Positions 1-12,901 of a stretch of 12,901 bases of DNA are shown here, piece after piece (within the stretch, counting starts at the first letter, position 1; every line of letters starts with the position of its first letter). The notes under the pieces were generated by a model. The model searched no databases. It was not told the DNA's origin and saw nothing but the letters and a program-made list of their open reading frames with translations. The DNA comes from a bacterium (lineage in GTDB: Bacteria > Arandabacterota > Arandabacteria > Arandabacterales > JALGWA01). The position numbers and the translations under genes are program-made. The stretch covers positions 1 to 12,901 of the forward strand of contig JASFEA010000090.1 of NCBI GenBank assembly GCA_050125095.1. Direction: 5' to 3'.

Positions 1-897
1 GCCATCGGACTCGAAGCGCCAGCGGAACCTCGGACCGGCGGTGTAGCTGTAGTCGCCGGGGTCGATCTCGGCCTTGAAGGCCGGCTCGCCGCCGACGCTG
101 CGCGTCTGCCAGTTACAGTTCACCAGACGGTTCGTGTCCGTGTTGCCCCAGTAGTCCGGATTGCCGCCGCCGGGAGTACCGCACTCTGAGCCAGGGTTGT
201 TACTCGTGGCATTGAAGAGCCCGATCTCCACCCACTGAGAGCCGTCGTACATCTCCAGGAAGAAGTAGTCGTACTTGCACTCAGTGTCGTAGCGGGGGTC
301 GAAGTAAACCGTACAACCGTTCGCCACGTCAAATGTGCCCGGAAGTTCGAGCTCGGCGATACAGTTCCACTGATCTCCGTAACCCGGCGGATTGATCCAG
401 GTACCACACTCTACGGGAATGCCCTGCCACAGAGTGTCGGACCCGCACCACAGAGCAGAGTCGCCGCAGTAGCTCCTCTGATCGGTCCTGTACGTGTCCA
501 TGTGCCAGTAGTTGACACCCGTCTGCGAAGGCAGCGCGCGGACGTCATGATGGGAGATACAGCCCGGAATATCGTCCCACGGCGGGTTAGTGCCGCAGGA
601 ATCGCCGTAGGGCCAGTTCCCCTCAAAGCACCACGTCTCGCTGCCGTCGGGGCCACCGATGGCCTCACCGCCGTGACCGCCAAGCGGGTCACCGGGGCAG
701 TAGGTCTCGTTTGTGTGTATCTGGACCCAGGTCGTGTCGCCGGCCTGTAAGATCATAAAAGGTCCAGCTGCAGGTAGCCTGCCGACCGCATAGTCAGGCG
801 GCGGTACCGAACGCACCGGCTCCTTCATGGCGAAGGCAGCAAAGGCCGTCAGCAGTACCAGGGCCACCGCTAATGTTACTACTCCAAATCGCATCAT
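1..897 (-). CDS. Secreted Cys-rich protein, paralog of 1361..4597 (3'-truncated by window edge)
   Basis: Manual translation from ATG at 897 (GGAGG at 910-906, 8-nt spacer) is open for 299 codons to base 1: MMRFGVVTLAVALVLLTAFAAFA-MKEPVRSVPPPDYAVGRLP...QAGDTTWVQIHTNETYCPGDP...FDPRYDTECKYDYF...PRFRWRFESDG. Signal peptide ending A-F-A; aligns nearly colinearly with the N-terminus of the neighbouring gene. Absent from the ORF track because no stop lies in the window. Confidence 0.95.
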   Translation of the reverse strand, partial: MMRFGVVTLAVALVLLTAFAAFAMKEPVRSVPPPDYAVGRLPAAGPFMILQAGDTTWVQIHTNETYCPGDPLGGHGGEAIGGPDGSETWCFEGNWPYGDSCGTNPPWDDIPGCISHHDVRALPSQTGVNYWHMDTYRTDQRSYCGDSALWCGSDTLWQGIPVECGTWINPPGYGDQWNCIAELELPGTFDVANGCTVYFDPRYDTECKYDYFFLEMYDGSQWVEIGLFNATSNNPGSECGTPGGGNPDYWGNTDTNRLVNCNWQTRSVGGEPAFKAEIDPGDYSYTAGPRFRWRFESDG

Positions 898-905
898 GGT
901 CTTCC

Positions 906-1017
906 CCTCCGATGCAATGCAAATTACCTACCGGCAACGTGCCGGCAGATTAAGCCTTTAGGGAATTCACTTGTTGTCGGACAGGTTGAATCCCGTGCGG
1001 CAAACGGGAATCGGAGG
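906..1017 (-). ncRNA. Candidate structured 5'-leader RNA, copy 1
   Basis: Closing helix CCUCCGAU (1017-1010)/AUCGGAGG (913-906, contains the SD); hairpin UCCCGU-UUGCCGC-ACGGGA (1009-991); block CCUGUCCGACA (985-975); 11-bp hairpin AUCUGCCGGCA/UGCCGGUAGGU (950-926). Same blocks and order as 4611..4724. Confidence 0.6.
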
Positions 1018-1083
1018 TAAAACGTAATTAAGCTAAGTCGGCATCACCCCCTTCACTTGAAGCTGAAAAAGTCCAGCCTATGG

Positions 1084-1283: not shown

Positions 1284-1318
1284 ACAAAATAGGGGGAGAG
1301 CCAAAGGGCCCTCCCCCT
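1284..1318 (-). terminator. Rho-independent terminator of 1361..4597
   Basis: 12-bp stem AGGGGGAGGGCC/GGCTCTCCCCCT (one G-U), loop CTTT, tail ATTTTGT, about 40 nt after the stop codon. Confidence 0.8.
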
Positions 1319-1360: not shown

Positions 1361-4300
1361 CTACTTCAGAATCAGCATCTTCTTCGTGGCGTTGAAATTG
1401 CCGGCGTTCATCTTGTAGAAATAGACTCCACTGGAAACCCGTTCGCCAGCCAGGTTTTTGCCGTCCCAGTTCGCCGCATAGCGGCCCGGTTCGACCCGGC
1501 CGTCTACAAGTGTAGTCACAAGCTGACCCATGGCGTTGTAAACTTTGATGTTCACATCCGCGGCGCGGGCCACCTCATACCGGATCTCAGTCACTCCGGC
1601 AACGGGATTCGGAGCGTTCTGATGAAGCGCCCACTGGAATTGCGCCTGTTTGGGAATATCACTGGTGCCACCCGTACCGGAACCCTGCGAAGGCAGACCG
1701 AATATGTCCTCCAGAATCGTGAGGATCAGATCTACCCTGCCCTCATAGGCACCGGGAGCGAATGACTGGTATCCCAGCGGCGCATTGCCCGTGCAATATT
1801 GATACGTGTGGTTTATCGACGCACATAAGTCAAAATTGACATACGCGCATTGACCCGTGCCCTGGTACTCGACATAAACCCCCATGTCCGCCTGGGCGAC
1901 ATCAGGATTTAGTACCGTCAGAAGCGGCTGCGCCGTGTATCCTGCCGGCGGGTTGACTTCTGTCTTGATCCAGCTCATGTCCTTGAGATAAGGACATTCC
2001 CTGTAAACAAGCATGGTGTCCAGGTCCAATGAAGTCGGAGTGCCAAACACGTTGACCGACGCAGCGCCTTCAGCATAGATGTAAGGCTTGTTGAACGCTG
2101 ACGGCATCTCATCAATGTAGTCGGTCCCCATGATGCCGCTCAAGAATTCTCCGCCAAGAGAATCCTCACCCACGCCGCCCTCGCTCTCCGGGGCCGCGCT
2201 ATAAGCCACCCGGTCGCCGCACAGAATCACCTTGCCGCCGCCGGCCAGATAATTGCGCATCTCTCTCTGGGCCTCGGCGTCGAATATGTCATTCGAGAAA
2301 TACGGCCCCGAGAACCACACAACGGCGTCGTAGTCGGTATTCCAGGTGCAGAGATAATGGATGTGGACGTTGGTTCCCGCTCCGGCGACGTCGAATTTGT
2401 CGTAGCAGTATCCCGCATCCGCCAGGGTGCGCTCGTAGATGTCCTCAAGAGGCTCGATATTATCCGCGGCGGCGAAGCACTGCGAATAATCGTAGTTCCG
2501 CCTCCCGTAGCCGTCCACAAGGAGTATTTTCACCCCGCTGTATTCCTCCGGGTAACGCGGCAGGATGTCGAATGTGTAGTAGTCCTCCGCGCGCCCCGTG
2601 TGATCCGGATCCGATGGATCCGCCTCATTGGGGAAGTACTCCTCATTGCTCAGGCCGTCAGTGCACTTCGCGTAATACCAGACCTGGGTGCCGCGCGCCC
2701 ACTCGCTCTCGCCGAAATCGTCCGGGCATAGCGTGCCCGTGTACTCTCCGCCGAGCGCCGGGTTGTGCGGGTCGAACGCCTGGAACAGATCCATTTCAAC
2801 CGACACCCAGGTGGCGCCCTCATCGATGCTGCCGATCAGTTCTACCGTGCTGACCTCATCCTTGTCGGTGACGTCTATGGTGAACGTGTTGAGCACCGGT
2901 ATCGAGTGCGCGCCGCCCGTGTAGTAGTTGATAGTATCGGGATCATAAGCGTCGAAATTCGAGTTGTACCCGCAGATACCCGGGAAGAACGAATCGCTCA
3001 GCAGGTCCGTGACCGTTACCTGGAACACGGTTGCATCTCCGTCGAAGAAACCGATGGAGACATTATCGATGATGTTCTCCGTGCCCCTATGCTTGCCGCG
3101 GCAGAACTGCCCCAGCGCGGAGTAGTCCTTAATGTCAAACGCGAATTGCATCGAATCGTGGACACCGCTGTAGAAGGGCGTAACATCGTCCTCGAAGTCG
3201 AAATTCCAGAAGAAGCAGCCGGACACCAGGTTGGTCTCGTCGATATCTATCCACGGGCACCACTGATCGTTCACGGCGTCACGGAACCGCACCATCGTGT
3301 TCGTGGCGTCGCAGGTTATATCCGGAGCGCACATGAACTGATCGTACTGAACGACGCACCCGGTGTTGAGCAAGGGCATCGTCGGAGCAAGCAGCCTGTA
3401 GAACCAACCGTTTCTCCAGGGCACCCCGACAGGATAGCCGCCTTCCGGCCTGGCTCTCCAGACTATGGACGAGTCCAGCGTGCATGTGGTTCGATCTCCC
3501 CCGTCACCTCCTTCGTACGGCGCGTCCGGGTCGTGGACCATATGCCACTGGTCTATTACGCCGTCCGGATCGGGGAAGCTCCAGTAGGAATCGAGACCCG
3601 TCTCGAAGTCCATGGTGTAGGTCTCGTCGTCTCCGACCACAACGACGTTATCGATAAATGCCGCCCCGTCACTGTTGCCGCTTCCGTCGGCATCGCTCCA
3701 GCCGCCATCCGACTTGAAGCGCCAGCGGAATCTGGGTGCCGTCGTTACGCCCAGCTCACCGGGATCGATGAAGGCGTGGAACGCCGGAATTCCGGAAATC
3801 GCTCTGGTCTGCCAGTTGCAGTTCAACAACCTGCTGGTGTCGGTATTGCCCCAGTAGTCGGGGTTCCCGCCACCCGGCTGGCCGCATTCCGCCCCGGGGT
3901 TGTTGCTGGTAGCGTTGAACTGCGCCAGCGACTGCCATTGAGTTCCGTCATGGTACTCGACATAGAAATAGTCGTACTTACATTCGGTGTCGTACCTCGG
4001 GTCAAACATAAGACTACACCCGCTGGCAACATCGAATGTCCCCGGAAGCTGCAGTTCGACAACGCAGTGCCAGTAGCTGCCGTACCCGGGGGGGTTGACC
4101 CATGTTCCACACTCGGTCGGCATACCGTTCCACATGCTGTCGGCTCCGCACCAGAGCGCCGAGTCGCCGCAATAGGACCTCTGGTCCGTTCTGTGGTCGC
4201 TGACATGCCAGTAGTTGATTCCCACTTCAGACGGCTGTGCCCACACGTCCACATGTCTGAAGCAGCGGGTGTCCCAGGGCGCATACGTGCCGCAAGAGTC

Positions 4301-4597
4301 GCCGTAAGGCCAGTTGCTCTCGAAACACCATGTCTCGCTGCCCACGGGACCGCCCTCGGCCTCGCCTCCATGACCGTCGAAAGGATCGCCCGGGCAGTAT
4401 GAGTCACTTGTATGCACCTGTACCCAGGTGGTGTCTCCTGCTTGAAGAATCACGAAAGGTTCAGCCATAGGTAAACGGCCGACTGCATAGTCTGGCGGCG
4501 GTACGGGCTTCGTGGGCTCCCTATATGCCAGGGACTCTGTTGCCAAGCCGCTGAGGATCATCCCCGTTGCCACCAGTAACGCAAATGCTAACTTCAT
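1361..4597 (-). CDS. Large secreted Cys-rich multidomain protein (two MAM/jelly-roll-like modules, GATase1-like fold segment, FlgD Ig-like/T9SS-type C-terminal domain), 1078 aa
   Basis: Start moved to ATG at 4597 (GGAGGTG 4610-4604, 6-nt spacer), giving signal peptide MKLAFALLVATGMILSGLATESLA. YDTECKYDYFYVE...RFRWRFKSDG...FIDNV resembles InhA-type MAM-like modules; KILLVDG...YDAVVWFSG...YLAGGGKVILCGD resembles a class-I GATase-like fold; tail QNAPNP...VYNAMGQLV...WDGKN..G..VSSGVYFYKM...TKKMLILK. Domain names are from motif recognition only. Confidence 0.9.
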   Translation of the reverse strand: MKLAFALLVATGMILSGLATESLAYREPTKPVPPPDYAVGRLPMAEPFVILQAGDTTWVQVHTSDSYCPGDPFDGHGGEAEGGPVGSETWCFESNWPYGDSCGTYAPWDTRCFRHVDVWAQPSEVGINYWHVSDHRTDQRSYCGDSALWCGADSMWNGMPTECGTWVNPPGYGSYWHCVVELQLPGTFDVASGCSLMFDPRYDTECKYDYFYVEYHDGTQWQSLAQFNATSNNPGAECGQPGGGNPDYWGNTDTSRLLNCNWQTRAISGIPAFHAFIDPGELGVTTAPRFRWRFKSDGGWSDADGSGNSDGAAFIDNVVVVGDDETYTMDFETGLDSYWSFPDPDGVIDQWHMVHDPDAPYEGGDGGDRTTCTLDSSIVWRARPEGGYPVGVPWRNGWFYRLLAPTMPLLNTGCVVQYDQFMCAPDITCDATNTMVRFRDAVNDQWCPWIDIDETNLVSGCFFWNFDFEDDVTPFYSGVHDSMQFAFDIKDYSALGQFCRGKHRGTENIIDNVSIGFFDGDATVFQVTVTDLLSDSFFPGICGYNSNFDAYDPDTINYYTGGAHSIPVLNTFTIDVTDKDEVSTVELIGSIDEGATWVSVEMDLFQAFDPHNPALGGEYTGTLCPDDFGESEWARGTQVWYYAKCTDGLSNEEYFPNEADPSDPDHTGRAEDYYTFDILPRYPEEYSGVKILLVDGYGRRNYDYSQCFAAADNIEPLEDIYERTLADAGYCYDKFDVAGAGTNVHIHYLCTWNTDYDAVVWFSGPYFSNDIFDAEAQREMRNYLAGGGKVILCGDRVAYSAAPESEGGVGEDSLGGEFLSGIMGTDYIDEMPSAFNKPYIYAEGAASVNVFGTPTSLDLDTMLVYRECPYLKDMSWIKTEVNPPAGYTAQPLLTVLNPDVAQADMGVYVEYQGTGQCAYVNFDLCASINHTYQYCTGNAPLGYQSFAPGAYEGRVDLILTILEDIFGLPSQGSGTGGTSDIPKQAQFQWALHQNAPNPVAGVTEIRYEVARAADVNIKVYNAMGQLVTTLVDGRVEPGRYAANWDGKNLAGERVSSGVYFYKMNAGNFNATKKMLILK

Positions 4598-4610
4598 TAA
4601 TTTCACCTCC

Positions 4611-4724
4611 AGTACGTCGGGCTGCCGCGCGCCGGAGGCCCGGCATGCGGTCTTGCCCACAGGGGAAGCCAAAGGTGTCGGACAGGCTGTCTTTCCCCCC
4701 TCCGTGGCAAACGGGAGACGTACT
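4611..4724 (-). ncRNA. Candidate structured 5'-leader RNA, copy 2
   Basis: Closing helix AGUACGUC (4724-4717)/GACGUACU (4618-4611), directly followed by SD GGAGGUG; hairpin CCGU-UUGCC-ACGG (4714-4702); block CCUGUCCGACA (4686-4676); hairpin CCGCAUGCCGG/CCGGCGCGCGG (4650-4625). Confidence 0.6.
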
Positions 4725-4819
4725 AAACAACACGGAAATCAGTCTATATACATGCCTCCTTTCACTCAGTATTCCGTAAGCGATATTGACTGCAATCGTC
4801 CCAACCCTGTCCCCAAGCC

Positions 4820-4848
4820 ACTATACCCAACTTCCGAGAAACCGCTAG
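4820..4848 (-). promoter_or_regulatory. Putative promoter of 1361..4597
   Basis: CTAGCG-N17-TATAGT, spacer ending TGGG, just downstream of the upstream gene's terminator; matches 1084..1112. Confidence 0.4.
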
Positions 4849-4864
4849 GGGCGCGTGAAGACAT

Positions 4865-4894
4865 ACAGAAAGGGGCACCCCTGAAGGATGCCCC
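4865..4894 (-). terminator. Rho-independent terminator of the C1A peptidase gene
   Basis: Stem GGGGCATCC/GGGTGCCCC, loop TTCAG, tail TTTCTGT, about 33 nt after the stop codon. Confidence 0.75.
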
Positions 4895-4927
4895 CATTTC
4901 TTCCCCTTACGAATCCCGGCCGGCGCT

Positions 4928-7411
4928 CTATCTGGCCAGCATTACCTTGGCCGTCTTTACTGCTCCCCCCGCATCCAGCCTCACGAAGTAGATGCCGGGT
5001 GAGACCCTGCCGCTAGCCGCAGACCTGCCGTCCCACACGACCGAATGATACCCCGCGTCCACCGGCGCGCTGATCAGCTCCTTCACAACACGGCCGCGCG
5101 TATCGAAGACTTTCACCTCGACCGCCATGGCACGGGGCACTCCGAAAAATATATGTGTAGAGCCGGAGAATGGATTCTTCTCGCTGCCGACAAGAACGAC
5201 ATCGTCGGGTATATTGACCTCCTCGTCCCTTTCCACCCCCGCGACATCCTGAACAATCGAAAACGGCGAGTCGCTTTCGTCGAAAACGGCATTATAGCCG
5301 CGGTCAAGGACCTCAATGCCTATCATGCACTCCGCGTGTTCGCCCGCCGGAATGTGCCAGGCGAGGGAGGTGTCGAAACCCGTTGCAACGCCCAGCGTGT
5401 CATCATAGGTCAGGCCGCCGTCGTAGGATGCCATCACGACCACCTCTCTCAGGCCATAGTCATCGGCCGCGACCCACTCGACATCCACCTGCGTGTCCTC
5501 CGTCAGTACCTCACCGCCGTTTGGATAGACAATCTCGACATATGGCGGCAGGACGTCCACCGACGCCGGGCAGCCCGTGATCTCGAAATCATCAACAGCC
5601 GCTTCCACGGTTGATTCGCTTCCGTAATCGCTCGCGACGAAGCGCAGCACCACCTCGTCGCTCAGGGGGACGTACCGGGCAAGATCGAATTCAGATTCGC
5701 GCCATTCCCTGTGGCTTTCCGTCTGGGTCTCCAGGTTGGTCCACGTGGTCCCCCCGTCGCCCGACACGTCCACTATCCATACGTCATCGGCGGCCGAATC
5801 ACCCGTGTCGCATGTATACCACTTCCAGTACCTCGCCATGGCGGACGCCCTGTCCGAGAGGTCGAATACAGGCGTCATCAGAGTGCGCTTACCGCCGTCC
5901 ACGTCGGCCATGTCAGGGCCGAAAGAGCGATTGGTGTTCGCCGTCACAAAAGACAAGACCATGGCGCCGGGGCTGTGGTCCCGCTCGGCCTGCACCAGAA
6001 CCGCATCGTTGGTTATGCTTCCCCGGGGGTTCTTTCTCACCCATGCCCCGGCAGTAGCATCGTCGTCCGGCGCCCCGCGGGTCCAGCCCATGTCCGCCTC
6101 AGCATCGTCCACAAAAACCGTTTCCACCGCGTCGCCGATATCGAGGCAGCAGTCGTCCGAAAACGCCCCCTGGTCGCATTCTATCGACAGAGTGAAGTGC
6201 GCCCTTGTACCGCAGGTTACCGCCGGGTCGACATGCACGGAGTAATGCGGCGGATCGGATTCCACGACGCCGTCCCCCGGGACGTCCGGGAAAGTCGTCG
6301 AACCCGCAAGGAGAACCTGCACGCCCGGCGTCATGCTCATCAGCGTGGCCGTCACATTGGTCGCGGTGACCCATCGCTGGTTGACAAGGCTCACTCTCAT
6401 CACAACCGTCTCTCCGGGCTCCGCGGCACCGTCACCGTCACCGGCCGAGTCATCAATCACACAGTTCTCGTAGGCGAGCTCTGTCCTCTGCCTGGGGGTG
6501 TAATACGTTACACAGGCCGCGAACCCGATGTCGGCGGTCCCGTACTTCATCCACGCATAGCCGTTCTCGCCCCAGTATGTTCCCCATGAGTTCTTTATGT
6601 GCCAGGCGCCGTCCCCGCCGCACATATCATCGTCCCAGCCCACGATCAGGACGCCATGGTTTATGTTGCCGTGCTGAGAGGTCTCGTAGCAACCGCCGTT
6701 GTAATAGTTGAAATCACTATAGACCGACATGCCGACCGCGACAGGCCCGTAGGTCATGACATGTTGTTTGATGCTGGCGACGCTTGTGTCGATGAATTCG
6801 TAGTCACCGAGATAGGTGACCACGTCACAGGTGTCCCCGTCGCAGTTGCCGTCAACGCCGTTCCTGTAGCGGTAACACACCTGCGTAACCGCCCCGACGG
6901 CCTCGTACATATCGTAGACGTCTTCCCACCAGCCTCCATCACAACTTGATGACCCGAAGTTGCAGTCGATGGCCTGCTGCACGGAAAGCCGCGTAGCGTC
7001 ATCGTCGTAGATCAGGAGCTGCGATTCCATGGCGGCGACTGAACACTGGGCCCAGCAGTCACCGCAGAGCTGGCGCCTTACAGGCGACACCGCGGCCGAA
7101 TCGGTCCAGTCGAAACGCGAGGGCAGGTCCATCGGCGCCCTCAAAATCGGCGCGCTCTCAAGCTCCTGGAGTATCTCGTAATAGTACTCGGGGACCTCCA
7201 GGCCGAGGAGATTCAGGCGCTCCTCCTCGGGAAGGTCCGAAATCGCATTGTGTCCGGCCACCCAGGAGTACCCGTTATCCTCTATCAGCCGCTGCACTTC
7301 CTCCAGCTCCGCCTGGCGCCGGCTGGCGTCTGCACGGGCAAGACCGGCCGACATGGCCACAAGGGCGATCACAAGAACGGTGGCCGTCATGTATCTGGTC
7401 AGGTGTTTCAT
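4928..7411 (-). CDS. Secreted papain-family (C1A) cysteine peptidase with propeptide, accessory beta-domains and FlgD Ig-like/T9SS-type tail, 827 aa
   Basis: Start ATG at 7411 (AAGGGAG upstream); signal peptide; LPSRFDW mature start; QLCGDCWA (catalytic Cys), LSVQQAIDC, CDGGW, NHGVLIVGW (His), WHIKNSWGTYWGENGY (Asn); then GDGDGAAEPGETV module, MAM-like module, YPNGGE module, tail FDTRGRVV...WDGRS...SPGIYFVRL...AKVMLAR. Confidence 0.93.
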   Translation of the reverse strand: MKHLTRYMTATVLVIALVAMSAGLARADASRRQAELEEVQRLIEDNGYSWVAGHNAISDLPEEERLNLLGLEVPEYYYEILQELESAPILRAPMDLPSRFDWTDSAAVSPVRRQLCGDCWAQCSVAAMESQLLIYDDDATRLSVQQAIDCNFGSSSCDGGWWEDVYDMYEAVGAVTQVCYRYRNGVDGNCDGDTCDVVTYLGDYEFIDTSVASIKQHVMTYGPVAVGMSVYSDFNYYNGGCYETSQHGNINHGVLIVGWDDDMCGGDGAWHIKNSWGTYWGENGYAWMKYGTADIGFAACVTYYTPRQRTELAYENCVIDDSAGDGDGAAEPGETVVMRVSLVNQRWVTATNVTATLMSMTPGVQVLLAGSTTFPDVPGDGVVESDPPHYSVHVDPAVTCGTRAHFTLSIECDQGAFSDDCCLDIGDAVETVFVDDAEADMGWTRGAPDDDATAGAWVRKNPRGSITNDAVLVQAERDHSPGAMVLSFVTANTNRSFGPDMADVDGGKRTLMTPVFDLSDRASAMARYWKWYTCDTGDSAADDVWIVDVSGDGGTTWTNLETQTESHREWRESEFDLARYVPLSDEVVLRFVASDYGSESTVEAAVDDFEITGCPASVDVLPPYVEIVYPNGGEVLTEDTQVDVEWVAADDYGLREVVVMASYDGGLTYDDTLGVATGFDTSLAWHIPAGEHAECMIGIEVLDRGYNAVFDESDSPFSIVQDVAGVERDEEVNIPDDVVLVGSEKNPFSGSTHIFFGVPRAMAVEVKVFDTRGRVVKELISAPVDAGYHSVVWDGRSAASGRVSPGIYFVRLDAGGAVKTAKVMLAR

Positions 7412-7473
7412 TATCGCTCCCTTCGTAGGACGGGCCTGGACCGCAGGCCGCAGTCTTCCATAATCCAATTACA

Positions 7474-7629: not shown

Positions 7630-8898
7630 CTAGTCGGGGATGACCTGATCGTCGAAGACGGCCTCTGGAGACCGCGGCCTGCGGATGAGATTGATCCTGC
7701 CGCCATCCACCAACACCTCGGCCGGCCAGCCGAGGCTCATGAAGTTCATGAGGCTCATCGTGTAACCATAAGCTCCCGCGTTGAAAATCCCGATGATGTC
7801 TCCTCTTTCCACGCGGGGCAGCATAACCCCATTGCCCAAGCAGTCGATCGGAGTGCAGATGGGACCGCATATATTGTACTCGAGCTCCGCGGGCTCGTTC
7901 ATTTTGCTTACGACCCTGACCGGGTGCCTGACATTCATGAAGACAGGCCTGCTGAAGGCATTCATGCCGCCGTCGGTAAGCACAAACCGTTTGCCACGGG
8001 ACTCCTTGACTCCAAGCACGCGCGTCAGAAAGACGCCAGACCTTGCGACCAGATAGCGCCCCAGTTCGAAAACCAGTCTGCACCCTTCTAGCCGCGCCGC
8101 GTTATCTGTCGCCATTCTTCGGGCCCTTTCGGATACTGTCTCGATGTCAAGGTCCCGGTCGTCTTCCCCGTAAGGAACGCCGAACCCGCCCCCGAAATCG
8201 ATGCATTCGAGGGGGAAACCCAGTTCGTCGGAGAGCTCGAAGGCGAGCCGGAGAACGTGGTCCATATGCCCGCATATGAAACCGGCGTCGAGCACCTGGC
8301 TCGCCGAGTAAACCTGTATGCCGGCAATATCAATGTTGGAAAGATCAGAGGCGCGTATCTCATCGGCGACCGCCTCTTCATCGAAACCGAATTTGCTCGG
8401 TCCGCCGACCATGACCTCGGGCGAACTCGGCGCCTCAGAAGTGTTGACGCGGAGAAGCACCCGCTGCCGCCTCGAAAGCCGACAGGCGTGCCTGTCGATC
8501 GTCGAGAGCTCGGAGCCGGACTCCGCGATTACCGCGTAAATCCCCATCTCGACGGCAAATGCGATTTCCGCTTCGGTCTTCGCCGGCCCGACGAAGAAGA
8601 TGTCGCGCGGTTTGAATCCCGTCCTGACCGCCGCCCTGAGTTCTCCCATGGAGCTCACGTCGGCGCCCGCCCCGAGATTTCTCATCCGGGAGCAGATCGC
8701 GAGTCCCGGATTGGCCTTGAACGAGTAAATAATATCGAAGTCGGGGAACAGCCGGCTGACCTCGGCGAATGCGGAATCTATCAGGTCGGCGGAGTAAGCA
8801 TAGAGGGGAGTTGAGTTATGTTCGAGCACGGCCTCCAGGCCCGCGCCCCCTATGTTGAAGGTCCCATCTCTTGAGAACAGGTCTTCTACCGCAGCCAC
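7630..8898 (-). CDS. Fold-type III PLP-dependent decarboxylase (diaminopimelate decarboxylase family; BtrK/SbnH-like)
   Basis: TPLYAY, YSFKANP (PLP lysine), DVSSMGE, GPAKT, LRVN, SKFG, IDFGGGFG, ELGRYLV, DGGM, GPICTPID, GAYG. GTG start overlaps the upstream gene by 13 nt. lysA symbol withheld because motifs deviate from canonical LysA. Confidence 0.9.
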   Translation of the reverse strand: MAAVEDLFSRDGTFNIGGAGLEAVLEHNSTPLYAYSADLIDSAFAEVSRLFPDFDIIYSFKANPGLAICSRMRNLGAGADVSSMGELRAAVRTGFKPRDIFFVGPAKTEAEIAFAVEMGIYAVIAESGSELSTIDRHACRLSRRQRVLLRVNTSEAPSSPEVMVGGPSKFGFDEEAVADEIRASDLSNIDIAGIQVYSASQVLDAGFICGHMDHVLRLAFELSDELGFPLECIDFGGGFGVPYGEDDRDLDIETVSERARRMATDNAARLEGCRLVFELGRYLVARSGVFLTRVLGVKESRGKRFVLTDGGMNAFSRPVFMNVRHPVRVVSKMNEPAELEYNICGPICTPIDCLGNGVMLPRVERGDIIGIFNAGAYGYTMSLMNFMSLGWPAEVLVDGGRINLIRRPRSPEAVFDDQVIPD

Positions 8899-9710
8899 TT
8901 CGCCCTGTAAACCTCGACGGTGGTGAGCCCCTGGAATATGTAAAACGGGAAGGGTTCCGAGACGCAGATGTCGACACCTATGACGTCGGAAGTGTACTCC
9001 TCCCCCATATTCGCACCCGTTTCGGCGAACATCAGCACCCTGGTGTCGTGCCGCTTCGCCGTATCCACGATATCGGTAAGTGAATCCGTAGTAAGAGTCA
9101 TCCCGGTGATAATGGCCACGTCGGCGCCTTTCACATAGGAATAGGTTCTGGTGCCGTGATCCACTTTCACGCCGTGCATCTCCCGGCCCACAAGATTCTC
9201 ATCCAGATCTGTGGCAACAACATCGTAGCCTTCGTTCTTGAGAGCCAACACGATGTTGCCCACAACTCCGGCGTTCAGCACCCTCATATCGCCGGGGCTT
9301 TTGCCCATCCTCTCCGCGAGGAGGTTCACTTCGGCGGCGATGATGGAAGCCCTCTTGCCCGCCTTCTCAACCGAGTTGCCCTCGAACTTATGAACGACCT
9401 GCGGATGCCGCACAATTGAAGCGAAGATGGAATCGAGGATGGCGATGCTGTAGCAGTCCTTCGTGCGCACGATCTCGCGGGCGTCCTTGCCGATCAGACC
9501 GGTGTCGATCTCGAGATTCTTGTCGCAGTAGCAGCACCCCTGCCCCATGGTCTGCGCCACGAGGAACGAGTACCTGAACACGCGTTCGTTTGCGTTCGGC
9601 TTAAAGGCGAGATCGACTTTCCAGAGACCCTTTACCAGAAAGGCCTCATCGTCGAGATGAGCAGACCGCTCGTAAGCCCTGTCTCTAAGGATGTCATAGA
9701 CACCCGCCAT
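8886..9710 (-). CDS. DUF364-like Rossmann-fold protein, 274 aa
   Basis: Start ATG at 9710 (GAGGA upstream). VLNAGVVGNIV...VVATDLD Rossmann-like segment and ADVAIITGMTLTTDSL resembling the DUF364 motif; C-terminal SEPFPFY. Confidence 0.7.
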   Translation of the reverse strand: MAGVYDILRDRAYERSAHLDDEAFLVKGLWKVDLAFKPNANERVFRYSFLVAQTMGQGCCYCDKNLEIDTGLIGKDAREIVRTKDCYSIAILDSIFASIVRHPQVVHKFEGNSVEKAGKRASIIAAEVNLLAERMGKSPGDMRVLNAGVVGNIVLALKNEGYDVVATDLDENLVGREMHGVKVDHGTRTYSYVKGADVAIITGMTLTTDSLTDIVDTAKRHDTRVLMFAETGANMGEEYTSDVIGVDICVSEPFPFYIFQGLTTVEVYRAKWLR

Positions 9711-9863
9711 CGTATCCTCTGTTCTGATTCGCGTCCCGGAGGGATCGCCCATCTTGCCCTAATGGGTTGGATAAAATCACTGTCTACTATATGCAATCTA
9801 ACCTCGATCGCCTCGATTAAAAAGCGATAATTGACCGCCCCGCGCCGGCGCCGGGCTATGCCC

Positions 9864-12528: not shown

Positions 12529-12901
12529 CTAGCCCTTGCCCTCGCTTCCGAGATACGAGCGCTCTATACCGAGAATCAGCCTCAACGACGTCGAGACGAT
12601 TCCGAGTGCGATACCGATCATAATGGCCCTCTGCCCGGCCATGTTGGGCACCGAGAGTATCCACGTGCTCAAGTTCGGGATGTGAAGGAACTGGAGCGGC
12701 TCCGGCAGCCAGAAAGTCAGATAATAACCAAGCGGCGTCGGTCTCAGCAGTATGATGAACGCGGCGACCAGCAATATCGTGGCCTCGCGGGTCTTGGCCC
12801 GGAAAGCCCTGTAGGAAGCGGACGCCACAAAAAACGCCAGCAGAGAGAACATGGTCGCCTGCAGGGGCTGGAAAGCCGAGTCGTAAAGGTACTTGAAGAG
12901 A
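12529..12901 (-). CDS. Hypothetical integral membrane protein (5'-truncated by window edge)
   Basis: Frame stays open upstream of the ORF-track ATG (LFKYLYDSAFQPLQAT-MFSLLAFFVASASYRAFRAK...AGQRAIMIGIALG...LRLILGIE); the true start lies outside the window. Confidence 0.88.
   Translation of the reverse strand, partial: LFKYLYDSAFQPLQATMFSLLAFFVASASYRAFRAKTREATILLVAAFIILLRPTPLGYYLTFWLPEPLQFLHIPNLSTWILSVPNMAGQRAIMIGIALGIVSTSLRLILGIERSYLGSEGKG

Follow-up and report, generated by a model that had tools for sequence, protein, structure and literature searches.

A conserved leader RNA predicted to hide the Shine-Dalgarno sequence of type IX secretion cargo genes in an uncultured bacterial order, and a candidate partner RNA

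The stretch of DNA analysed here, termed the window, is the entire 12,901-nucleotide (nt) contig JASFEA010000090.1 (12.9 kb; assembly GCA_050125095.1; phylum Arandabacterota, order Arandabacterales). It belongs to a 3.35-Mb metagenome-assembled genome (MAG), labelled G000, which is estimated to be 91% complete. Two paralogous genes for large proteins of the type IX secretion system (T9SS) are each preceded in the window by a related leader sequence, and these leaders are an undescribed, conserved, lineage-restricted and structured cis-regulatory element that is predicted to sequester the Shine-Dalgarno (SD) sequence. Two sequence blocks of the leader recur as exact reverse complements in the 5′ untranslated region (UTR) of a second gene, which encodes a small secreted Ig-like protein. 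The explanation favoured here, to which a probability of about 0.5 is given, is that the SD-sequestering leader is targeted in trans by another RNA, and that this RNA would be the UTR of the small-protein gene.

The window genes lie on the minus strand, and coordinates refer to that strand, i.e. the mRNA strand of genes 1..897 and 1361..4597. Thirty leaders were gathered in all; 23 distinct sequences are type 1 (copy-1-like) and seven are type 2 (copy-2-like). The genes and the elements of the two leaders are as follows.

1..897, minus strand: gene 1, with ATG at 897-895, truncated at the contig end; N-terminal domain of the T9SS cargo family
1361..4597, minus strand: gene 2, a 1078-amino-acid secreted protein with ATG at 4597 and a C-terminal T9SS type A sorting domain
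906-1017, minus strand: leader copy 1, between a hairpin at 1291-1318 and the ATG at 897
1040..1054, minus strand: copy 1 upstream SD-like block, GAAGGGGGUGAUGCC, whose GGGGGU is able to pair with the anti-SD ACCUCC as alternative helix P0
1010..1017, minus strand: copy 1 5′ strand of helix P1 (anti-SD), CCUCCGAU, unchanged in 23/23 type-1 sequences
996..1009, minus strand: copy 1 block 1, UCCCGUUUGCCGCA; CCGUUUGCCGCA complements nt 70-81 of the partner 5′ UTR at G000:C134
961..994, minus strand: copy 1 P3 hairpin, GGGAUUCA / UGAAUUCC, with block 2 in the loop; 92% of cells paired in 23 sequences
976..985, minus strand: copy 1 block 2, CCUGUCCGAC, the exact complement of nt 1-10 of the partner 5′ UTR
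928..948, minus strand: copy 1 P4 hairpin, CUGCCGGCA-CGU-UGCCGGUAG, present in the fold; 6/8 pairs doubly changed in the family
906-913 (within 904..913), minus strand: copy 1 3′ strand of P1, AUCGGAGG, overlapping the Shine-Dalgarno sequence GGAGGGG (904-910)
4611-4724, minus strand: leader copy 2, between a hairpin at 4871-4895 and the ATG at 4597
4751..4762, minus strand: copy 2 upstream SD-like block, AAAGGAGGCAUG
4717..4724, minus strand: copy 2 5′ strand of P1, AGUACGUC, from the minimum-free-energy fold
4706..4716, minus strand: copy 2 block 1, UCCCGUUUGCC; CCGUUUGCC complements nt 73-81 of the partner UTR
4662..4700, minus strand: copy 2 P3, GGGGGGAA...CUUCCCC, with block 2 in the loop
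4677..4686, minus strand: copy 2 block 2, CCUGUCCGAC
4619..4658, minus strand: copy 2 P4, a composite GC-rich hairpin
4611-4618 (within 4604..4618), minus strand: copy 2 3′ strand of P1, GACGUACU, with the SD GGAGGUG (4604-4610) directly after it

A preliminary description of the window, made from its letters, had pointed out two 11-mers shared by the leaders in the same order, and both are exactly where it placed them on the minus strand: UCCCGUUUGCC at 999-1009 and 4706-4716, and CCUGUCCGACA at 975-985 and 4676-4686. The combined pattern occurs at just these two places in the genome. P1, described as eight perfect base pairs in each copy (CCUCCGAU/AUCGGAGG in copy 1, AGUACGUC/GACGUACU in copy 2), is present in both minimum-free-energy folds, and the P3 and P4 hairpins are also as first drawn. 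The P2 hairpin with its UUGCC loop forms in the fold of copy 2 only; copy 1 folds instead into a CCCG:CGGG stem whose loop is 9 nt long, or forms a GCC:GGC pairing. A feature that was not stressed is that P1 of copy 1 has the SD sequence itself as its 3′ strand. The exact spans fold with z-scores of -4.1 (copy 1) and -3.0 (copy 2), and 0/200 and 2/200 shuffles, respectively, fold as well. The reverse strand folds comparably (z -4.1 and -2.7), and the strand is therefore not decided by folding energy alone. A small open reading frame within the leader was ruled out, as the reading frames differ between the copies.

P4 of copy 1 followed by AAUUUGCAUU (926-950, minus strand) is terminator-like in a simple scan. 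The U-run after P4 is not kept in genome family f2, and attenuation is thus unlikely.

That the leaders do not belong to a described RNA, as had been proposed, is borne out by Rfam 15, in which a search with the whole window on both strands gave the leaders no family at E ≤ 10. The sole match that overlaps a leader, M23, is on the opposite strand; its score of 20.2 bits (E 5.9) compares with a gathering score of 41.2. A literature search returned no publication joining Eisenbacteria and riboswitch, and for Eisenbacteria and small RNA the sole match concerns, as far as its search entry goes, CsrA and is unrelated to the leader RNA described here. The titles and entries listed for T9SS, small RNA, leader and SD included nothing pertinent.

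The type-1 covariance model matches in 13 of the 18 phylum genomes that were searched, in none of 133 genomes outside the phylum, and in neither of two genomes of a sister family, f3. All 14 full-length matches end at the start codon of a member of the cargo family. In the window's own genome the leader is borne by five of eight cargo paralogues, and it is also found before orthologues in other genera and on metagenome contigs; all type-2 leaders seen come from the window's genus or from related metagenome contigs. The leader is restricted to one paralogous cargo family, in one order of one phylum, and is associated with no metabolic or transport regulon. The 10-mer CCUGUCCGAC is the only one that is invariant across all 30 leaders, from at least nine genera, and its flanks diverge.

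A pattern scan of contigs was discarded as evidence of wider spread. Among the matches listed, 52/80 had a 35-nt spacing, and most of these are the antisense of a conserved coding stretch that we take to be the GatB C-terminal domain (...VGQVMK...GKA); the true leaders among the matches listed are L087 and L104 only. A match from a separate pattern search, L003, falls inside a coding region, presumably DUF4159-like, and is a chance match. The statement on spread beyond the phylum thus rests on the samples of 133 genomes (covariance model) and 383 genomes (partner pattern, below).

At the level of RNA secondary structure, the 23 type-1 sequences have 91.7% of cells paired, as against 37.7-57.7% when the pairing partners are slid. 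The covariation score is 0.211 compared with 0.111 for shuffles, and 0/500 shuffles reach it, in an alignment that was fitted to the model itself and hence favours the model. In P4, six of the eight pairs have changes on either side; P3, with 92% of cells paired, has one pair altered in this double way and five altered on a single side. The family has the conserved fold with covariation that is characteristic of riboswitch-type RNAs, and the earlier proposal of a conserved, structured cis-regulatory leader is upheld by the phylum-wide matches together with the covariation in P4 and, in part, P3. P1 behaves differently. It had been put forward as a helix kept with changing sequence, and it does differ in sequence between the two types, but within type 1 all eight base pairs are invariant (23/23 sequences). 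The claim of P1 covariation accordingly comes down to one type-2 subfamily of two sequences. The lack of variation within type 1 is attributed to the pairing of the anti-SD CCUCCGAU against the SD AUCGGAGG. Other type-2 subfamilies have no equivalent P1, the SD-complementary strand being placed elsewhere; several type-2 copies have not kept block 1, and P4 is missing from one (L046).

The leaders appear to contain competing pairings. The 5′ UTR is ∼200 nt long, and the structured leader within it ∼110-125 nt. In type 1 the anti-SD CCUCCGAU and the SD strand AUCGGAGG are predicted to close the whole domain, and ∼25-30 nt upstream there is an SD-like block (GAAGGGGGUGA in type 1, AAGGAGGUGAUGC in type 2). 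The sequence GGGGGUGA is invariant in 19/19 type-1 leaders, and the P0 alternative, GGGGGU:ACCUCC, is compatible with the same number (19/19 type-1 sequences, RNAalifold). As an alternative to P3, its G-rich 5′ strand can form P2 with the run of pyrimidines that immediately precedes block 1. P2 is 90% compatible over 27 distinct sequences and P3 is 94% compatible, and neither exceeds shuffles; the two are better regarded as alternatives than as proven helices. Since the anti-SD and the 5′ strand of P3 each have two possible partners, two mutually exclusive helix sets are predicted, and by prediction the leader combines an anti-SD with a competing pairing, as is found in SD-sequestering leaders. 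A GCC:GGY helix suggested by RNAalifold was not adopted; it is 93% compatible within type 1 and only 58% across both types.

A purine block of the kind found upstream of P1 (GGAAGGGGGUGA or AGGAGGUGAUGC) is present ∼70-130 nt before the start codon in many leaders of secreted-protein genes of the phylum. It is found at 1040-1054 and 4751-4762 (minus strand) in the window, at L224:1600-1640, and at L207, L208, L209, L211, L212, L229, L231 and L232, and occurs in the partner UTR, in the gene downstream of the small protein and in cargo paralogues that do not have the two blocks. An extended SD sequence is complementary to the 3′ end of 16S rRNA; the purine block matches an extended SD, with no start codon at a usable distance. 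The block might serve as a decoy or standby site for ribosomes, or as a site for CsrA.

The preliminary description read the invariant loops as the signature of ligand or protein binding. The exact reverse complements of these loops, however, are found at the 5′ end of, and within, the conserved 5′ UTR that precedes a different gene. The 10-mer CCUGUCCGAC occurs 20 times in the window's genome, and besides the five leaders there is one further occurrence that was judged by eye to be non-coding, on contig C134.

G000:C134:7567-7776, plus strand of C134: partner 5′ UTR, preceding the gene for a small secreted Ig-like protein

The order of elements at this locus is TTGACA-17 nt-TATACT, six bases, GUCGGACAGG, a hairpin, ∼59 nt, UGCGGCAAACGG, an SD-like block, the SD and ATG. 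Both leader blocks are represented by exact reverse complements, with their relative order kept: GUCGGACAGG, which is nt 1-10 of the partner from the predicted transcription start, complements CCUGUCCGAC in the P3 loop, and an internal partner stretch, GCGGCAAACGG, complements the second block of the leader, CCGUUUGCCGC. At 9/9 complete loci displayed, TTGACA-17 nt-TATACT or TATAAT is followed after 6-7 nt by GTCGGACAGG; two more loci are cut by contig ends. The -10 box joined to the 10-mer is found once per genome in 10/18 phylum genomes and in 0/383 genomes outside the phylum, and a reversed-pattern control gave two matches. Partner nt 1-10 are invariant in 9/9 aligned UTRs, and variation is seen ahead of +1 and at positions +11 and +12. 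Conservation in the partner thus starts exactly at the predicted first transcribed base, as given by a consensus promoter prediction. Rfam has nothing relevant for the partner UTR loci at E ≤ 1.

The product of the partner gene is a secreted protein of 189-206 amino acids with a sub-threshold Big_1 match and two C-terminal repeats, which are presumably dockerin-like; Pfam did not report dockerin. Homologues of the small protein in G006, G008, G012 and G013 were rejected as partners, being paralogues (35-65% identity) with other UTRs.

The partner locus shows several further features. In genome family f1 its UTR has a second stem-loop, GCGUCAGG...CUGGCGC, followed by UGUUUUGA (L224:1513-1617, L223:1406-1510). 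Termination after this stem-loop would free an RNA of ∼95 nt with both complementary sites; the U-run is missing in f2 genomes. At L218, L219 and L220 (G007, G010 and G014) the sequence GACCGACAU lies ∼30 nt before the UTR's own SD and can pair with its own 5′ GUCGG. Such pairing would explain the low predicted accessibility of the seed in G010 and G014 (0.08, compared with 0.35 in G007), and the cargo leaders might compete with this internal pairing, such that regulation would run from leader to partner. A second conserved leader is found 3′ of the small-protein gene, within the 200 nt past its stop codon (L207, L208, L209, L211, L212, L214), and consists of a AGGAGGUGAUGC block, then GCUUCCUUCGACAA...GAAGCUAGACCAGAGCAGGCUU and GGAAAGGAG before the ATGAAGAAA start.

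Complementarity between leaders and partner was assessed by contiguous runs, which replaced RNAduplex on whole leaders after the latter gave long meaningless duplexes with z near 0. The 10-nt block of 30/30 leaders is contiguously complementary to partner nt 1-10 at 9/9 loci, as is expected of a base-pairing RNA. With Watson-Crick pairs only, runs at block 2 are 10-12 nt in cognate pairs, a length that shuffled partners reach in 0-9/1000 cases; runs at block 1 are 9-12 nt in 11/14 cognate pairs, and for 8/14 pairs the second-best run is reached by 0/1000 shuffles. The 9-nt core of block 1, GGCAAACGG, has the partner variants GGCAGACGG, GGCAAAUGG and GGCAAGCGG (A>G twice, C>U), and all three kinds of change retain a wobble pair with the unchanged leader. 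Of the two positions that flank the core, one has C-G pairing in most genomes, with U-A instead in G007 and G003 and U-G in a single copy; a G-G mismatch also falls in the flanking positions in G003.

The proposed mechanism has three parts. The leader would govern translation of one family of large T9SS-secreted proteins by hiding the SD sequence. The two invariant single-stranded blocks would be pairing sites for a second RNA and not a ligand pocket, and the second RNA would be the conserved 5′ UTR of the small-protein gene. Pairing at block 1 would block P2 and drive the leader to P1 plus P3, with the SD closed. A fuller version, offered more tentatively and at somewhat less than even odds, is that an uncultured Eisenbacteria-like order has a two-site antisense circuit between mRNAs. 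In it, the small-protein leader would dock, with its triphosphate 5′ end and one internal loop, on the two blocks of a bistable leader common to several cargo paralogues, would flip that leader between SD-mimic/anti-SD and anti-SD/SD pairing, and would couple production of the small protein to that of the cargo.

Several results weigh against trans pairing. When G-U pairs are allowed, shuffled partners often equal the cognate run length (3-230/500). At block 1, the 11 type-1 cognate pairs have 118/121 cells paired compared with a permuted mean of 116.5, and 291/5000 partner permutations equal the cognate pairing, which is suggestive and not significant. Block 1 is diverged in two of the three type-2 leaders compared in the window's genome (8/11 positions pair). 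Predicted accessibility is 0.53 for block 2 and 0.39 for block 1, with a leader mean of 0.40, and ranges from 0.08 to 0.67 for the partner 5′ seed. The two elements largely occur together, with exceptions: of the 18 phylum genomes, which are incomplete MAGs and close kin, 10 have both elements, three the leader only, one the partner only and four neither. G006, G008 and G012, which are 85-91% complete, have the leader with no partner UTR found, and in G010 the partner is present with no leader found. When both blocks of 23 type-1 leaders were masked in silico, SD accessibility went down in 14, up in three and stayed the same in six; the outcome being mixed, the sign of regulation is only a guess. 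Lastly, RNA contigs from three metatranscriptome runs, described below, give no cover over 871-1392 or 4525-4872, i.e. over neither leader.

An aptamer cannot work as its own reverse complement, and the mirrored blocks thus speak against a ligand pocket and for either RNA-RNA pairing or a DNA operator. In the operator explanation, the boxes GTCGGACAGG and GCGGCAAACGG would bind one or two regulators in either orientation, acting over the transcription start in the small-protein gene and as a roadblock within the transcribed leader in the cargo genes. The same data fit an operator that is read either way, and it explains the mirror image of the blocks and the +1 position equally well, which is a further point against trans pairing. 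Relative to transcription the boxes are found either way round, their mutual order being kept, the core GTCnGAC reads as palindromic, and +1 to +10, where the 10-mer lies in the small-protein gene, is a classical operator position. In addition, a shift in regulator specificity would equally account for the position at which both partners change (GCCGC to GCCGU, GCGGC to ACGGC). Pairing between two sense RNAs is nevertheless preferred, for four reasons. Partner conservation begins exactly at the predicted first transcribed base. Leader block 2 is in the loop of a covarying hairpin with G-U pairs on the mRNA strand, which would be needless for a DNA site. The spacing between the blocks, 13-22 nt in leaders and ∼47-62 nt in the partner UTR, differs threefold, and this is unusual for a single protein. 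Finally, substitutions in the block-1 core all keep G-U pairs on these strands. No regulator gene was identified, and an operator is considered unlikely.

Less probable again is a true riboswitch, in which a small molecule would stabilise P1 and close the SD, the match with the other UTR being a coincidence or an added layer. The architecture lends itself to this: the fold has several helices, and the P1 that closes it includes the SD or adjoins it, P3 and P4 covary around invariant joining and loop nucleotides, the alternative pairings are typical of an expression platform, and no known family matches. Signalling nucleotides control adhesin and protease genes in other bacteria, and are an example of the kind of ligand that might be expected. 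The invariant nucleotides are, however, accounted for by exact complementarity to a conserved RNA 5′ end; also against a riboswitch are the lack of conservation of block 1 in several type-2 copies and the absence of P4 from L046. The earlier suggestion of a riboswitch-like ligand role has also fared poorly on distribution. All 14 full-length matches precede one paralogous family within one order (13/18 phylum genomes, 0/133 outside) rather than several gene families or lineages, the gene context suggests no ligand, and there is no evidence for a small-molecule one. A riboswitch keeps a low probability, now with no specific support.

There is a somewhat slimmer chance that the leader is bound by a protein, e.g. 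CsrA on the GGA-containing SD and SD-like blocks, which the fold would present with no involvement of a trans RNA. In the genome, which is 91% complete, two CsrA homologues score above the Pfam cut-off and no Hfq was found, which counts for CsrA. The leaders have two or three GGA/GGAGG purine blocks (the upstream block, CACGGAGGGG in type 2, and the SD), and the same upstream block is present in UTRs of other secreted-protein genes. CsrA binding leaves unexplained the invariant CCUGUCCGAC and its mirror at the 5′ end of another UTR, and the type-1 upstream block of family f1, GAAGGGGGUGA, has no GGA. That the 11-mers are functionless remnants of gene duplication might be thought from the paralogy of the two genes (N-terminal domains 68% identical), but this is contradicted by covarying helices and by a 10-mer unchanged in 30 leaders (at least nine genera) amid diverging flanks, and has next to no probability.

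The cargo family consists of multi-copy, T9SS-sorted proteins of ∼1100 amino acids that are defined by the N-terminal ∼300 residues. This N-terminal domain has eight matches in the window's genome and is present in 17/18 phylum genomes. In PDB and Pfam sequence searches the recognisable domains of gene 2 are a C-terminal FlgD_ig and the T9SS type A sorting domain only, and Atlas neighbours of its product are unnamed T9SS clusters, mostly from records labelled Eiseniibacteriota and Krumholzibacteriota. The surroundings of the leaders include the following.

1291..1318, minus strand: terminator-like hairpin 3′ of gene 2, from a simple terminator scan
4871..4895, minus strand: terminator-like hairpin 3′ of the papain-family peptidase gene and 5′ of copy 2, from the same scan
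4928-7468, minus strand: papain-family (Peptidase_C1) gene, 846 amino acids with an FlgD_ig domain, directly upstream of copy 2

The hairpin at 1291..1318 follows gene 2 and suggests that copy 1 heads a separate transcription unit. Farther along the window come genes for an Orn/DAP/Arg decarboxylase (7630-8898) and for a DUF364 protein (8886-9752). Three metatranscriptome runs on wetlands, from two studies, have contigs that match the coding parts 1-855, 1386-1782 and 3520-3731 at 93-100% identity. These matches are consistent with expression of both leader-controlled genes or of close kin, DNA carry-over being a possible alternative; as they cover coding parts only, they are uninformative about the leaders.

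Upstream of the extended -10 promoters of several cargo paralogues, a repeat of ∼22 nt (TGTGCATTTCAAGACCTGACCCC and variants) is present two to four times, at G000:C86 ∼12,560-12,650, upstream of 14,949 in G000:C69, and at L045, L048, L051, L053 and L054. The repeat accompanies paralogues both with and without the leader. The repeats are likely transcription-factor binding sites.

Gene regulation in this uncultured phylum is almost undescribed, and the collection searched holds only 18 species-level genomes. If the trans-pairing explanation is true, type IX secretion cargo would have a defined post-transcriptional regulon, the parts of which are a leader with SD mimic, anti-SD and SD, and a partner with a 10-nt 5′-terminal seed. 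There is also a caution for riboswitch hunting. Invariant loops in a covarying scaffold may be target sites of an RNA or of a DNA-binding protein, and a cheap check is to seek the reverse complement of the loops in the same genome.

Three known types of system invite comparison. Translational OFF riboswitches with the SD inside P1 likewise have a multi-helix domain in which P1 includes the SD or adjoins it, the joining and loop nucleotides are invariant and the peripheral helices covary; c-di-GMP-I and c-di-GMP-II riboswitches are examples upstream of adhesin and protease genes. The leaders described here differ in having no Rfam match at E ≤ 10 and no candidate ligand, in being tied to one gene family in one order, and in that their invariant nucleotides recur as reverse complements in another RNA. 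Listeria SreA is a riboswitch- or UTR-derived RNA that acts in trans. Neither RNA here is a known riboswitch, and the stem followed by UGUUUUGA is found only in family f1; the likeness is that a 5′ UTR element of one gene might pair with the leaders of other mRNAs.

The remaining parallels are leaders that base-pairing RNAs encoded in trans open or close, such as the rpoS leader with DsrA and RprA, and RybB, a small RNA with its seed at the extreme 5′ end. In the system described here, from a genome where no Hfq gene was found, the candidate partner resembles the 5′ UTR of a protein-coding mRNA and not a free-standing small RNA. There are two separate predicted pairing sites, neither of which overlaps the SD or the anti-SD. 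In common with these systems are a long 5′ UTR with an upstream strand that is complementary to the SD and sequesters it, a second RNA whose single-stranded 5′-terminal seed is conserved and followed by a hairpin, and several paralogous targets that have one target site in common.

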